Assembly: GCA_037834085.1 (NCBI GenBank)
Contig: JBBMKC010075162.1
Span: 1-38,839, forward strand
DNA from: Bipalium vagum
Lineage: Eukaryota
DNA length: 38,839 nucleotides
Direction of reading: 5' to 3'
Numbering within the stretch: the stretch's first letter is position 1; each line of letters starts with the position of its first letter. Shown in pieces: positions 16,031-38,839 of the stretch. Under the pieces are notes generated by a model. The model had not been told where the DNA came from. It searched no databases and worked only from the letters and a program-made list of their open reading frames with translations. Both the position numbers and the translations under genes were made by a program.

Positions 16031-17003
16031 TTAGAGGTATGCATAAGTTCCCATCGTTCACATATTTTTAACATTTTAAAATTAATTTTTTTAACAAATG
16101 CTTTGTTTGGAAACATTTGTTTAAGTAAGTCATTATTGATTATATTGATGTGCATGACCTTATAATATATTTAAATTTGCCTACTTATTTCAAGCAATAA
16201 TTAAGGAAGTTGAAATGCATATTCGCCACTACATGTTGTTAATGCAAAAAAACCTGCTAAAGCAACCCGTTTAATTTGTAAAACTTATGGTGATGGAACA
16301 ATATGCAAGAGCTGACAATGCTAATGGTTCAGACGCTTTAGAAACGGTGATATTGATTTAAATGATAAATATCGAGTTGATCGACCACAATAAATGAGTT
16401 CGGACGAATTAGAAGCGCTTTTGAAATAAGATTCAACTCATTCGGGTGCAGAGCCAGCAAGAAGGTTGCATGTTAATCAAAGCACCATATTTCTGCGGTT
16501 GCATCAGATGGGAAAATTTTCAGAGAAAAAAATTGATTCCTTATGAATTATCAGAGCACAGTAGAATCAGCCGAGTCATCTTTGATCATTTTCTTCAGAG
16601 ATACGAACAAGTATTTTTGTATAGAATTGTAAACGCAGGCGAAAGTTGATATATTATAATCCCAATCTCAAAAGATCGCTGGTAAATCCTGGAGAACCGG
16701 GATCTTCACAGTCAAAAGAGAAATAATTATGGTCTTAAGGTCTTCCTGTGTATCTGGTGTGACATGCAGGGAGTGTTTTATTATGAACTATTAAAACTAT
16801 CTGAAACTGTTACTGTGAAACTATACCGTCGCCAATTGACACAGTTGAACTAGCAATTAATTGCCAAACAGTCATATCTTGCAACTAAACAGAATAAAGT
16901 GCTTCTTCTGCAGGACAATGTTAGACCATGTGTGGCATTAAGAACGAAGAAATCTTTGATGGACTTAAATTAGGAAATTCTAAAATACCCGTCCTGGTCC
17001 CTA
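16031..17003 (+). mobile_element. Mariner element (Mos1/mauritiana-like), 3'-truncated pseudogene
   Basis: TA followed by a TIR-like TTAGAGGTATGCATAAGTTCCC; MHIRHYML...WFRRFRNGDIDLND...IPYELS...FLYRIV...KVFLCIWCDMQGVFYYELLK...LLQDNVRP...EILKYPSWS; breaks before the third catalytic D. Confidence 0.92.
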
Positions 17004-23819: not shown

Positions 23820-25077
23820 TACCCATCATCAAAAGTCTGAGGCAGGTAACATTTATTAATCAACAATAAGCATTTTCACAAGCATTGCTAATAACATATG
23901 TGACCTCCTTTTTTGATACGCATTCATTGATTCTTTTCGGCATCGATTCAAATAAACACGAACATTTCCCATGAGTTAGTTCTTTCCATTTTTCATTGAG
24001 ACGCTGACGAAGTTGAGGTAGGATTCCTGGTGGATAGCCATATGTTGAAGGCACTTGCTTGCTCAGAATGTCCCACACATGTTCTATTGGGTTCAAATCT
24101 GGAGATCTTGGCAATCATGGAAGCATTACAATACCGGATTTTTCCAGAGCGATTTTTGCGGTAACATCAGGCCTGATTTTTCGTGATACAAGGAAAAAAC
24201 CTCACCATCTTAAATCTCTTGAACGTATCGCTGAGCATTCAGAATGCCATCAATAAACAACAGTCTAGATCGGAAACCATAACCGAGAGCGCCTCATACT
24301 ATAACACTGCCTCCACCATAGCAGTCATGATGTGTAATGAACTCTTCATTAAACCTTTTAGAAATCTGGCGATCCACTCGAACTCTACCATTATGAAAGT
24401 CTAGATTAAAACGTGACGATGGAAAATACAATACTCCTCCAATACGCCATACCTTCATTTATGAGCTCTTTGGACCAGTGTAACGGACAATATCTGTGGG
24501 ACGGTGACAGAGGAATTCTCAACAATGGTCGTTTAGATTGGAAGCTAAATTGTAGAGCACGTCTGTTAAATGTTTCAGCAGATAATGAAATTGGAAACTT
24601 TGCTGCTACATAATTTTTGTTGATTTTTATCGTATTTAATTTATAATAATAATCTAGCAATCTGTATGGGACAAAACGATTGTTCTTTATTGGTTCTAAC
24701 TAACATGCGATCATCTGTATTGCTTGTTAATCGCGGTCTACCTGATCTGGGAAGGTTATTACATGCATGTGTCTCTTTCCATTTCTTCCAAATACACTGA
24801 ACACCACATCTGGATCGCCCAACTACAAAAACAAACCAGCTTCTAATAACTCAAAAATACGACTTCTCTCAAATTGGAATTTTTCATGTCTGACACTAAT
24901 TTTAAATTTTTAAATTAATTATAATGATGAATTAAAACACTAAATATATATTTTACATAAAATAGTTAATTATTCTAAAATAAATTACTTTTAATTCATG
25001 GGCTTAACAAAAATTATATGAGCTCATCACGTTTCCTTTAATAAATTTCACCTGCCTAAGAATTTTGATGATGAGTA
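23820..25077 (-). mobile_element. Tc1 (DD34E-type) element with both TIRs, transposase pseudogene
   Basis: About 40-bp TIRs TACCCATCATCAAAAGTCTGAGGCAGGTAACATTTATTAA and TACTCATCATCAAAATTCTTAGGCAGGTGAAATTTATTAA, with TA flanks. Translation: PRSGRPRLTS, WRSIVFS/SRFNL, YGGGSVIV*GA, LNAQRY, PRSPDLNPIEHVW, FESMPKRI. The second catalytic D (QDN) region appears deleted. Confidence 0.93.
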
Positions 25078-32948: not shown

Positions 32949-34680
32949 TCAACTGTTCTGACAAACGACCTGCTTTGAGTTGCAACTTATAGACGGAGCC
33001 GTGACATTATTAAACGAGTTTTTATCTGAAAATTCAGTTGGCTGCTGCTGTCTTTCCCCGTTCTTTTTTAAAATCTGCGTCATTCCATGAGAACTGGTCT
33101 GAGACGCCTTGAAGTCGCACTTTCTTCGCTTGAAAGACGACGAACCGTTTCTGTGATGATAGTACATAGACGAAAGCGATTTGTCGGACAGCTTTCGCTT
33201 GAGGTCCGCGGAAGGACCGGTAGTGGTAGTGATGTGCTTGGTCAGGAAGCCATTTTTAATGAGACTGGATTGATGATTGTGTTTTGATTCAACAGATTTT
33301 GACCGATTCACCGACTTCACGGACGTTTGGGTGAAAATGTAGATATAACTTGAGTTTTTCATTGACATCATAGCTTGGAGCTCGTTGATTTTAGTCACCA
33401 TACTGTCACTTATGCGATGCCATTGGCCGCCCAGTTTAGATATGCACTCGTAGTGACCGCTGGAAAGCGAGTTACCCAAGTGGATTACTACTGCTGCGAT
33501 CTCATATGTGACACTGGTACGGTTGCCTTGGGTATCGATGTAAGGAAGTTGGATATGTTTGCAGAACTCGACGTCGCGAACATTCTTTGAGCTATTGAAG
33601 AAACTGTGTTTAAACCTGAAAATAAACAAATCAAATGTCAGCCAATACTATAAACGAGAAAGAATTTTAGGAAGTTACCTTTTTAAACAACAAATGAAAG
33701 ATTTCGGTAATGAAGTAAAAACGGCGTCCATCTGAGCTGAACCGTTGGTGATTTTACAATTATCACATTTGAAATTGTTGTTCTGTGTTTTGAGTGCCAT
33801 ATTTAGCATAACCGGAAGATTATGTGCCAATTCGAGAAAAAATGTCAATTCTTCTTGAATTTGGGGAGACTTGATGTTTGACTTCTTACACTTACTACAA
33901 TAATAACGACAATCGTAAAACGGTGCGTAAGTCTTTCGTACAGGGTTATTTTGTCCTTTATACGTATCGATTTTATCAAATTCTTCTCTCAACCGATCCA
34001 GAAATCCATTGAGAAATTCCTGAGCATCCTCTTGAGCACCGTTTCGAAAGTTCTTGCTAAAATCTAATATGCCGTGGATCAGATGATTCGTTGTCATGAG
34101 AAAAAGCACTTACATTTTAGACTTCTGATATGGCTGATAGGTGTCCAGCAGTCTGATTTATTTTCTAACTTATCCAGATACAAGTTAAATAATTCAATTG
34201 CTGGATAATTAAATTTTCTGGCATTTCGTAATGATGATTTTAATTCTTTATTAATGGTTGGCAAAAGAGCTTGTATTGAAGAGTTAATATAACAGTTATT
34301 TCCATTGTTAAATAATCTTAAAGGTGTTTTATATAAAATAATAGGTTCTTCTTTTTTCACTGTAATTTTAAAATTTTATTTAAATGACATACATTTATTG
34401 AAATTACCATTTTCCTTTGTTGTTCCACTATATTCTGTTGTTATCACTTTTAAAAGATCTGAAGATTGTAATTTACTTTTCTTGAAATTGAGGTTAAGTT
34501 TAAAATCTTCAATATTCTTAGATAATATTGTTATATATTTTCCATTTGGATAAATAAATGAACAGTTTTTATTTTCCTAAAAAAAGAGAGACTATTAAAA
34601 TGTTACTTATTCAATTAGAAAAGATTAAAGGTTAAAATAAAATGTTATATCAAATATAAAAATATATATCTATAAACCAT
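32949..34680 (-). CDS. Ubiquitin carboxyl-terminal hydrolase (USP/C19 family; divergent, USP36/42-like architecture), about 489 aa
   Basis: Spliced model: 34680-34678 (ATG only, tentative), 34576-34408 (alternative donor ends the exon at 34393), 34359-34114, 34063-33679, 33615-32949. All introns are GT-AG and phase-consistent; total 1470 nt. Motifs: Cys box LFNNGNNCYINSSIQAL, QEDAQEFL, CSKC/CDNC zinc ribbon, LKRF, His box YEIAAVVIHLG..SGHY, WHRISDS; basic C-terminal tail (KRK...KRRK). Confidence 0.93.
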
Positions 34681-36169
34681 AAAATTTCACGCGAAATTCT
34701 TAATTTAGTATTTGTTGATATTAACGGATATTAAAACAATTTTGCATAATAATTATGTATATTAAAAATTTGAATTTAAATTTATTAAAATCTATGACAC
34801 GTTTATATGATATTTAATTAATTTTAATTCAAGTTATTAATTTTTATATTTTAATCAAGATTAATAAAATAATTAAATATTGACAATAATTATTTATAAT
34901 AGCTAAAACTAATGAATTCTTCATTGCATACTATTTCAAAGTATATATTAATAAAGTTAGAAGGAGCATCTACAAGGTCATTAAAAAAGGCAAGAGAGAT
35001 AATATCGCCTAAAAACCAAGAAAGAAAAATAAAAATAAAAGAAGAATAATTTAAATTTTATTTAATGAGGATTAAATTTATAATTTAAAAATTTTTTAAG
35101 TAATATATTATCATGTCATGTATTAAGTATAATAGTAAATGTAAAATTATTGAATAATAAAGTTAAATTCTTTTAATTAAAATAAATTTATAGATTTCTT
35201 AAATATCTCTTTAAATTAATTTCAATAAAAATTTTATTAAATATCTTAAGATAATTAGTTTATTTAATTATTAAATAAAAGAAAAGCACTTTTCGGCTAC
35301 TTAATTATTTTCATTACTTAAAAATTACATTCAATTTTGGCTTAATGAGTTCAAACTATACCGATAAGTGACAATAACTACCAATTAAGAATGTTCTTTA
35401 TATTCAAAAACTGCAACAGATTTAAATAAAAATGAACTAGTTATTTTCCTTCAGGACATCTAAGCCCTTTCTAGAGTAGATTGAACTCTTCGTGGAAATA
35501 AAAATTATTGTCATTTTGATCACAAATAATTAGTTTTTAGTTGTAAAAAAACAAATTTGTAAATTATGATAATCAAAAAATAAATATTTTTAAAAATAGT
35601 GTTGTCTGTTAATTGGAATTTGCATTTGAAATTCTTTTGATTAATCTTTCAAATCTTTATTACATATCTTGAAGTCTTCCAAAGCCAACTAAATCCTTCG
35701 TTTAATTTGTTCTGAAAAATTTACCAAATCTTTGACATTCAACGTTTAGATACACTTTTGAAATATTTATTCTGTAATTCTGATTGAATTTCATATCAAT
35801 TTTTCTTTATAACTAAAATAGCTTGATTAAATTTAGATGTACGTCTTGTCATTTTGTAACTGAAGTAAATGCTTATAGCATTTAAATTTTAAAAATTTAA
35901 ATAATTATCTTACACTAATACTACTTCAACAATTTAGTTAATAATAAATACATAATTTTGAATTTGAGTTCCTAAAACACAAACCATATCAATAAATAAA
36001 TTATTAGTATATTTTACAAGAGGTGAACAAACTTTTGAAGAGTACTGTATTATGCAACAAATTTCAACATCTTCAACTTTGAATTTATTTAAATGTTCTT
36101 TAACACTATCTACAACTTCATTAATTTTAGGTAACACATTAATTATAAATAAAATACCATTTTTAATTA

Positions 36170-36969
36170 TTAAAGAAAATAAAAAATATCTTTAAAATAT
36201 AGTAGTCCAGATAAACCTAAACCAAATGATAAAGAATTATTTGAATTAACAGGTGATTTAAAATATCTACTAGAAAGAAAATTCCATTTTGAATATCCAG
36301 AATACATCAGTAAACGTTCTACCAAGTCAGTTAATATTAAACACACCTACTCACAAACAGACATGTAAAATCTTGTTTTTCCGACAAATATCCAATCAAA
36401 TGATCGCTCCTATAATTACTCGCCACACAAACGAACCAACGCAAGACACACAGACACATCAAGACACCCAAAGGTATCCGTCCGGTTGTTGGACTCCCTG
36501 CTGAACTTCCAATCTCGACACTACTACACGCTAAACTCAACAAGAGTATTATAAAAAATGAATGATAACCCAATTTCTTCAAACATTATAATATAACTAA
36601 ATATCTAAAGGATGTATTGTTTTTTTTTCAGAAAATATATTTGAGTGAAATTTTAGGATTTGAAAAAAAACGTTATACAGAAAGTAATTATGAATAAAAA
36701 CTGTTCAAAATTTCAATCATAAATAGAATTATGATTGAATTGTAATATTGTTGAAGGAGGATTTTATAATGGGGAAGGAGCAAATATTATTTTTGACTTT
36801 CCCTCGAACAATGTTTCAAGAGGACATAGAATTATTAAAAGGTCAAAATTATAATTAAACTACAAAACATATTAATGAAATAAAATGAAAGATATTTTCT
36901 AAGAAAAAGGAAAAAATACATTTTAATGGAGAAGAAATCAGTTTTAGTATTCATATAAAGCAGGTTTAA
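36170..36969 (+). pseudogene. Maverick/Polinton minor capsid (penton) protein, decayed and interrupted
   Basis: Frameshifted translation LSEILGFEKKRY...ISIINRIMIE/CNIVEGGFYNGEGANIIFDFPSNNVSRGHRIIKRS...HINEIK*KIFSKKKEKIHFNGEEISFSIHIKQV* matches the Polinton penton pattern LLGF...IxIxCNIVxGSYxNG...FxPNVxPGYKIIExP...IDFxGExIxxxLHxK. Confidence 0.85.
36270..36598 (+). mobile_element. Possible Penelope-like reverse transcriptase fragment inserted in the penton gene
   Basis: Distinct C/A-rich block; TRHTNEP...KTH..GIRPVVGLPAELPISTLL resembles the Penelope KTHK...IRPI[IV]S...P...IS..L motif; flanked by AAATATCTA at 36261-36269 and 36599-36607. Confidence 0.35.
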
Positions 36970-37249
36970 CCTGTTTAAAAACAAAGTTTACTTTACAAAC
37001 CGCACTTGAAACAAGTTTGAGTTTAAGAGATTAAACATTTTTTATAAAAAAATTGTAGAATTTTTGTTTTGTTAGTGAAATAAAATTTAATCATTATCTT
37101 AATTTATCACAAGTTATTAGAATTTTGTTATTACTTTTTTTTATTTTTATTTTATTATTATTATTTTATTACAAGTTTTTAGAAATTTCTTTTTTAATAT
37201 GATTTATATAAAGAAAAAGGTTATAATAAATTTAAAATTAAAAAAAATA

Positions 37250-38520
37250 TATATAATATATTAGAATTATAATAATAATTTTTTTATCTTCAGATGTTAA
37301 TACCTTATCTTTATAATATTCTTTAGTAATTTTTATTATATTAATAAGATGATTATCTATTTCATTTATTACATTAAAAAATCATCTAAAACATTTTCTC
37401 CATAAAATTGAAAATATATTGATTAAAATAATTCTAGTTAATTCGATTTAATATAAATTATTACTGATAAAGGATGTTGTTTAGTTATCAATTTTTTATC
37501 ATCAGAAACGATTTCATTTTCACATGTATTATAAAATTCAAAATCAATATATACTACAAATGGAATTTTATCTCTAAAAAATTTATTTATAAATTTCAAT
37601 AATCTTCTTTTAGAAATTCTTTCTGCATATTATTACATGTTCATAAAGTAAATTTTCTGATCTATTTGAATCTAAACCATTTAGACAAATATGATTACTA
37701 TGAAAATTTGTATTGGAAAAAATATTCATATTTTTATATAATACATAATGGTTATTATATAATAAAAATTTACATTTTTCTCCTTCGATAGTTGGATGAG
37801 ATATAAAATGCTATAAATTGGTGTCTATATTTTATTGTCACTTGTGTTATCTTTTGATAATTAAAAACATGTACTTTAATATTATTTTGTTTATTAATTT
37901 TTTTATATCTTCTATTTGTTTAAAAAAATATTATATCATTTAAATTTATTTCATTTATATATGGAACATAAGTATTTACTCTATCACTATTTATGTACTT
38001 TATTATTTACTCTATCTTTTGCTGGATGTGAATAAACAATTACTGAATAAATAAAACATTTTGAATATTATTTTTACAATATATGTTGATTTAAATGGTA
38101 ACTCAACATATGAAGAGCCAATTAAACTTTGATATTTAAATAAATCTAATTGAATTGATTTCATCCTTTCAAAATTCCATTCTGATTATGTATGTTCATT
38201 TTTTTCTATAAAATTATTTAATTGTTCTAAATTTCATAAAACTGAACTTATTTTTGCTTTCATATTAATTTTTTTCGGATTTAGAATAATATGAAGATGT
38301 TAATTCCTGTCTTCTAAAATATTTCTCTCATAATTATATTATATTAATACCTTATATTTAAATTTCTTATTTAATTCAAAATATTTTAGTAAAATTTTGG
38401 TTATTTCATTTTTAAAATTAAGTATATTTTATTCATTGGTTTCTTTGGTTATTTCGATTTTACTATCTTTAAATATTATTAATATTGTAATTGTATGTTT
38501 TATATTCTTAATTAACGTTT
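37250..38520 (-). pseudogene. Maverick/Polinton protein-primed DNA polymerase B, N-terminal part (OTU-like region, Zn finger, Exo I)
   Basis: Motifs in the expected order across frameshifts: SEWNFERMKSIQLDLFKYQSLIGSSYVELP, KCFIYSVIVYSHPAKDRV, YINEINLNDIIF, NNIKVHVF, LLYNNHYVLYKN, HICLNGL...LYEHVIIC, KIPFVVYIDFE, KQHPLS, FYGENVLDDF, LTSEDK. The polymerase core is absent. Confidence 0.9.
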
Positions 38521-38839
38521 TCGTTGTAATAATCATGATCATCACTGTGAGATAAATTGAAAATTAGTCGATGGATGTAGCTCAGCGGTAGACAAGTCCA
38601 TGCGCATGTGATGGGTCCTTTTCTAAATCAGAAACATTAAAACCGATTCGTAACTTTGTGTCAGCGCAAAGTACTTTCATTTCTCGTATATCAATGGCTG
38701 CAAGTTTGTTTCTGCTTGCTTGGAACAAAATTTGTCTAACGATAATTTTGATTCAAAACTTGTCAAATATATATACGAATTGAGACAGATTAAAGAAAAG
38801 AACTTATTTCTTGGTAAATCTTCAGGTCAAAGATCATCC

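Follow-up and report, generated by a model that had tools for sequence, protein, structure and literature searches.

Mavericks of vertebrates are described in the relevant sections of PMC8097293 as having (AGT)2//(ACT)2 ends and 6-bp target duplications, with 96% of loci decayed. In the passages of PMC8502044 that treat polymerase classes, an OTU-bearing PolB without similarity to PF03175 defines the Beta class of adintoviruses, or Polinton group 1. Planarian elements have been reported as well: in Schmidtea, Polintons are silenced by piRNAs (PMC8532177), and Mavericks have expanded in Dugesia (10.64898/2025.12.11.693146). Both appear as repeat classes in the text consulted, and the likeness to the elements presented here is one of description only. 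Mavericks as such were thus already on record for planarians, to which the host likely belongs, and the 'undescribed lineage' of the original prediction was overstated in view of these publications. The placement of the host comes from one gene, a divergent alpha-tubulin frame in L038 that shares 75% identity with a Schmidtea polychroa protein and with one external record, against 42–60% for the other 118 of the 120 matches listed. Inteins are scarce in eukaryotes and found mainly in unicellular ones, going by the intein passages of PMC10710043 and PMC5784728. Endonuclease inserts in polinton polymerases have been suggested to stem from intein invasions (PMC11161782, in the passage on such inserts), and HNH and VSR inserts are described in the accessible text of 10.1101/2023.08.22.554363.

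The locus studied here lies in a window of 38,839 nucleotides, the whole stretch of DNA that was analysed; it makes up contig C75162 in a 441-Mb genome assembly split into 272,664 contigs. By itself, the relic in the window is an ordinary Maverick fossil that now does nothing; the notable result lies at the level of its family. This family shares an OTU-bearing PolB, penton, major capsid protein, ATPase and rve integrase with the Beta adintoviruses as far as PMC8502044 sets them out, and degraded endogenized copies are common in both. It resembles the vertebrate Mavericks, as the same sections of PMC8097293 portray them, in its AGTAGT-type ends and decayed fossils, and differs from them in its host, in having yielded no intact copy here and in a protease that is unconfirmed.

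The Maverick relic in the window

The stretch is very probably the non-coding fossil of a single integrated Beta-PolB Maverick/Polinton, in which geneX (an unknown gene ahead of the penton in sister copies), the penton, the packaging ATPase and the N-terminus of the protein-primed polymerase (pPolB) are partly kept, and from which the ∼4–5 kb between them was likely lost in one deletion private to the window copy. All seven motifs named in the original prediction are found in the order it gave: LGF, CNIVEG and FNGEEI of the penton at 36653, 36741 and 36922 on the forward strand, and GSSYVELP, KCF, HYVL and PFVVYIDFE of pPolB at 38119, 38061, 37750 and 37563 on the reverse strand. The pair had been called invisible in the open reading frame track, and neither gene is indeed covered by any frame of at least 80 amino acids; Pfam, run on 21 fragments of the window, recognised no viral piece. 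The extent first proposed was right about a penton facing pPolB but has to be moved at one end, the relic starting near 36046 rather than at 36170, and three components had been missed: what is left of geneX, the 5′ stub of the ATPase, and a repeat that has nothing to do with the virus.

On the reverse strand, 37253..38544 holds a Beta-type pPolB reduced to its N-terminal part, with 6 stops and with 12 of 13 indels breaking the frame. Its proposed identity is borne out by tblastn with sister frames, which yields five collinear pieces of 42–58% identity (E 1e-44). The best piece scores 103 bits, against no more than 22.3 bits when the region was block-shuffled 200 times, and the external record P0010 matches the gene with E 2e-9. 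The terminal-protein domain spans about 38476–38125; an OTU protease with its Cys in KCF and its His in HYVL, a C2H2 finger and the ExoI motif are also kept, and the gene stops ahead of an endonuclease-VII-like insert, its polymerase core deleted. For structure prediction, an open 382-aa sister frame was used with an alignment of 42 sequences. Residues 70–189 of the model show a middling resemblance to the little finger of Y-polymerases (Z 8.7, rmsd 2.9, 102 aligned) and residues 197–312 a likewise middling one to OTU (Z 7.3, rmsd 3.3, 104 aligned), and Foldseek with this N-terminal part gave no match at E 0.001. OTU residues Cys214 and His306, the counterparts of the Cys and His in the window's KCF and HYVL, are invariant across the 42 sequences. 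This succession of terminal protein and vOTU is the layout set out in the corresponding passages of PMC11161782.

In sister copies pPolB goes on beyond the point where it breaks off in the window, into the endonuclease-VII insert and then the exonuclease, which upholds the earlier claim of an interior deletion that took the polymerase core; a family-wide short pPolB was considered and rejected, since sister frames carry on past the break. The whole gene, though broken, is present in contig C201705. Four full-length relatives hold ExoI (4/4), PolA (4/4) and PolB (3/4) motifs, and Pfam detects the endonuclease-VII insert. By sequence, the family pPolB is classed with the Beta adintovirus PolB, an OTU-PolB divergent from the PF03175 type: per-protein Pfam searches at E 0.01 leave PF03175 absent from L017, L025 and six full-length relatives, and the Alpha-type L016 matches it at 1.6e-32. 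L017 was nonetheless picked up weakly (7e-13) by a genome-wide PF03175 family search. PDB sequence searches with the Beta pPolB gave nothing useful.

The C-terminal half of a penton (minor capsid, single jelly roll) pseudogene lies at 36542..36969 on the forward strand, with 2 stops and with five of its six indels breaking the frame. Sister frames recover it by tblastn in three pieces of 47–69% identity (E 9e-19), in agreement with the original assignment; the best piece reaches 53.5 bits (at most 23.9 bits after the same 200-fold block shuffling), and the external record P0002 matches with E 6e-20. An open 260-aa sister frame, modelled from an 11-sequence alignment (mean pLDDT 75, pTM 0.53), is penton-like in fold. 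Its best Foldseek match is the mavirus penton (E 1.2e-10), followed by adenovirus penton bases and Sputnik. A wide structure search with the same model ranked mavirus and a PBCV-1 chain highest, both at Z 11.5 (rmsd 9.0 over 227 aligned residues and rmsd 3.4 over 127, respectively), followed by Sputnik (Z 10.1, rmsd 8.6, 226 aligned). The penton of the window and its family is, on this model with its high rmsd and pTM of 0.53, predicted to be the single jelly-roll penton of Mavericks/Polintons. Atlas placements of the penton fall solely in viral/cnidarian clusters, and a PDB sequence search with it gave nothing useful.

Ahead of the penton, the geneX remnant (36046..36287, forward strand) is 54–62% identical in amino acids to a frame in L112 (E 3e-15) and 74% identical in nucleotides to C201705; geneX matches no Pfam family. 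The rest of geneX and the N-terminal half of the penton have given way to the terminal portion of another repeat (36306..36543), unrelated and at least 1.1 kb long, which all 40 copies scored of 355 candidates match. The 39 other scored copies are 75–84% identical and mostly end at 36542–3, and copies have up to 1.2 kb in common beyond this segment. A candidate TIR at 36341–36543 was rejected as the end of this other repeat. The repeat is unclassified and has one sharp end (L073–L086); in L009 and L077, too, it borders on Maverick pieces.

Behind the penton, a degraded 5′ stub of an A32-type packaging ATPase that has lost its Walker A region lies at 37049..37250 on the forward strand, where 37003–37126 and about 37190–37247 match contigs in which the ATPase begins; a reading of 37060–37250 as non-coding flank was rejected in favour of this stub. 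The stub meets pPolB in an A/AT-rich tract at 37245..37260, where matches from the left end at ∼37247 and matches from the right begin at ∼37244–37256. The junction runs from gene to gene without a spacer, and among 40 scored of 379 candidates the window alone spans both its sides, other copies breaking at different points. We infer that ∼60% of pPolB was lost together with the major capsid gene and the remainder of the ATPase, roughly 4–5 kb by an estimate from gene lengths in broken sister copies. The 5′ end of pPolB is truncated by a tRNA-derived repeat (38545..38615, forward strand; 85–89% to L007, L049 and L126). Of four loci scanned with ARAGORN, only the L049 copy yields a tRNA-like gene, and fuller copies of this repeat (e.g. 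L049:2078–2190) are framed by short inverted repeats.

An arrangement of two or more independent Maverick fragments, brought together fortuitously or by one inserting into another, would be the main rival to one deleted element, and we regard it as improbable. Fragment density in this genome is very high, nested copies occur elsewhere (e.g. L152, L159 and L160), and more than one pPolB orientation is seen in sisters. A scrap of the major capsid 5′ end also lies out of order at 35384..35434 on the forward strand (80–84% over 45–50 nt to L115, L116 and L118; also L062, L091 and L103), probably through another insertion or a rearrangement, so that a composite of two insertions keeps a small probability. 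Against this stand the collinearity of geneX, penton and ATPase in their native order, a pPolB that faces them as in 4 fuller copies, the similar divergence of all parts from C201705 (67–75%) and the spacerless junction. Still harder to sustain is a relic that is a non-autonomous deletion derivative amplified in trans: a penton facing a truncated pPolB recurs in L002/L122 and L057/L127, and L111 and L126 are short and TIR-bounded, but the former pairs are broken at different points, no other copy among the 40 scored of 379 candidates spans the window junction, and the window has no TIR. Co-option of the terminal-protein/OTU part or of the penton by the host is largely refuted by the many stops and frameshifts and the lack of codon-position bias, despite the surviving OTU Cys and His codons and a host ubiquitin-protease gene 1.5 kb away.

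The single deleted element that we prefer has decayed neutrally, as judged from its frame-breaking indels and from mismatch rates spread over codon positions (0.27/0.20/0.29 and 0.23/0.20/0.20 in the two genes). No TIR was found in the window, either by local alignment (scores of 26–42 against shuffled maxima of 42–56) or by blastn, and no target-site duplication is left in it.

Sister copies across the genome

The family ranks among the major repeats in this genome, so that 'hidden' in the original prediction overstated the case. At least 152 matches were obtained for the penton (150 scored of 2592 candidates), at least 122 for the double jelly roll (126 scored of 446), at least 47 for the pPolB/penton DNA (40 scored of 2191) and at least 26 for the A32 ATPase (150 scored of 318). 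The best long DNA matches are no more than 70–79% identical, and the elements form a specific Maverick family without a close named relative, its penton being 56–61% identical to external records.

Sister architecture was read from 20 and then 12 longer stretches picked for carrying several genes. In fuller sisters the order is geneX–penton–ATPase–major capsid, converging on pPolB. Penton and major capsid face pPolB in L117+L151, L112, L118 and L115, as do geneX and ATPase where preserved. The Maverick origin and the old age first proposed for the relic are both upheld. A double jelly-roll major capsid (PF21738, E 1e-18) is linked to the same penton in sisters, of which the window keeps a scrap at most, and Pox_A32 passes its cut-off in a sister. 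An rve integrase (PF00665, E 1.5e-9, over cut-off) is present in L153 and absent from the window; the same integrase gene, at 64–70% amino acid identity, occurs in the TIR-bounded L111. AGTAGT/ACTACT inverted repeats are seen at both ends of L111 (143/178) and L126, and the left TIR is found in L117. The flanking 6 bp agree at 5/6 bases in L126 and 3/6 in L111. Of the Maverick hallmarks sought in sister copies, integrase, packaging ATPase, major capsid and TIRs were thus recovered, but the protease was not confirmed: a PF00770 search gave no match anywhere, controls included. A candidate frame in L167, presumably akin to the adenovirus-like cysteine protease, has no Pfam or PDB match. No complete element of 15–40 kb was seen or assembled.

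The ancestor, to judge from the literature, would have replicated by protein priming, with the terminal-protein domain as primer and the OTU protease probably cleaving it off. For integration it would have relied on an rve integrase acting on inverted repeats with AGTAGT ends, and its major capsid, penton and A32 ATPase could have served to package DNA. In the window copy, a single interior deletion of ∼4–5 kb, likely private to it, may then have joined its ends at A/T-rich microhomology, and later repeat insertions would have taken away both ends.

Several further arrangements were observed among sisters. The short TIR-bounded copies without polymerase, L111:2023–7145 (5.1 kb) and L126:2161–5168 (3.0 kb), are candidates for non-autonomous derivatives. 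The orientation of pPolB relative to the right-arm genes varies between copies (L157, L167 and L153 versus L117), and more than one architecture therefore exists. The left arm of L116 differs from those of L111 and L117, and its frame at 1040–1609, upstream of the capsid module, encodes putative fibre-like repeats. In L152 (C6067), L153 (C87370) and L130, an Alpha-type (PF03175) polymerase adjoins geneX/penton/capsid or integrase/PLA2 genes of Beta type, possibly through a polymerase swap or nesting. Polymerase swaps are a described phenomenon. The family also has a PLA2-like gene, which the part of PMC8502044 on virion modules describes for those of the Alpha class.

A predicted intein in the polymerase of sister copies

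In C201705, motif C of the polymerase is interrupted by an insert with Hint and LAGLIDADG regions, at G000:C201705:7560–8800 (L117/L162); copies with such an insert are also found among L163–L176 and L197–L206. Motif C lies inside the window's deletion, and the intein is known from sister copies. The insert opens with a Ser behind GD and, in the better-kept copies, closes with KN ahead of TDS; it measures ∼1,050–1,220 nt. The Hint N-terminal splicing region was recognised by TIGR01445 in two of five frames scanned (34.1 and 31.4 bits, cut-off 24.5), and LAGLIDADG_3 passes its cut-off in a sister insert; Pfam Intein_splicing stays below its cut-off in these partial frames, and the Nanoarchaeum polymerase intein structure (NEQ068, PDB 5oxx) is matched weakly (E 0.009). 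The endonuclease part has at least 154 genomic matches (150 scored of 279 candidates, some contigs matching twice). An intein-bearing state of the family is thus well supported by sequence, and the intein is predicted to be self-splicing.

Filled and empty sites occur side by side. Among 9 junctions examined, KN|TDS is read in L166/L204, L172, L200 and L201, and RN|TES in L192; empty sites of GDTDS type are found in other copies. With an intein-containing query, 15 of the 15 top loci were filled, and of twenty further loci, mostly picked for ending at the site, 4 were filled and 16 empty or broken; given this choice of loci, the counts should not be read as frequencies. Compared with C201705 over 174 nt of extein, identity is 95–96% in three filled copies and 92–94% in four of six empty ones, the other two standing at 81% and 72%. 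No uninterrupted intein copy was found among those inspected.

The nearest relatives of the intein are same-site inteins of RNA-primed family B polymerases. In a representative protein library, 864 proteins match it at 1e-10; such polymerases account for 12 of the 15 matches scanned, with the insert at the same site in most top matches, and no long Beta pPolB is found among the best 150 of the 864. With the giant-virus and archaeal motif-C inteins (PMC5784728, in its passages on these; NEQ068, PDB 5oxx), it shares the GD|S...|TDS site, the Hint and LAGLIDADG regions and 32–52% identity over matched stretches. Unlike in those cases, the host protein in the sisters is a protein-primed Maverick polymerase, amplified in what is likely an animal nuclear genome. 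The family also departs in its motif-C intein from the viruses of PMC8502044, where the word 'intein' is absent from the main text and from the one supplement searched. Three external records, P0241, P0249 and P0251, are short fragments in which a Maverick-like extein leads into the start of an intein, and two of them score 78–84 bits against the Beta pPolB. Phage records and viral contigs gave no match to the intein, and the PolB/intein leads in the atlas were all under 0.9.

On balance, though by no means firmly, we favour a history in which the protein-primed polymerase of a flatworm Maverick was invaded by a homing intein of giant-virus type, which then multiplied along with it. A predicted self-splicing, endonuclease-bearing intein would then occupy about 100 or more animal nuclear sites and home between filled and empty copies, and P0241, P0249 and P0251 would suggest recurrent, so far unreported intein-bearing Mavericks. 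The LAGLIDADG intein would have been captured from an RNA-primed family B polymerase and then likely spread by homing between copies. If true, a complete intein of Hint and LAGLIDADG parts, present in some alleles and missing from others, would provide direct evidence for the intein-invasion route, and Mavericks would have shared cells with large DNA viruses bearing the same intein allele.

An intein in this Maverick pPolB family is possibly unreported. Within a literature search whose scope ended short of subscription journals, Repbase and bioRxiv supplements, no description of an intein in a Polinton/Maverick polymerase was found. The intein passages of PMC12220804, PMC3671162, PMC5718144, PMC10710043, PMC5784728 and PMC6431247 describe none in a Polinton, and the word does not occur in the accessible text on Dugesia (10.64898/2025.12.11.693146).

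Neighbouring features of the window

A host ubiquitin carboxyl-terminal hydrolase gene lies at 32949–34581 on the reverse strand (PF00443, E 3e-9). Its apparent introns, as read from the sequence, are very short (∼33, 56 and 60 nt). The first exon of this gene was not found, and the intron behind it may therefore contain the relic. Elsewhere in the window, the frames at 3256–3668 and 23860–24699 are putative fragments of mariner/Tc1 transposases, and a repeat at 16162–16660 is common to L008 at 70% identity.
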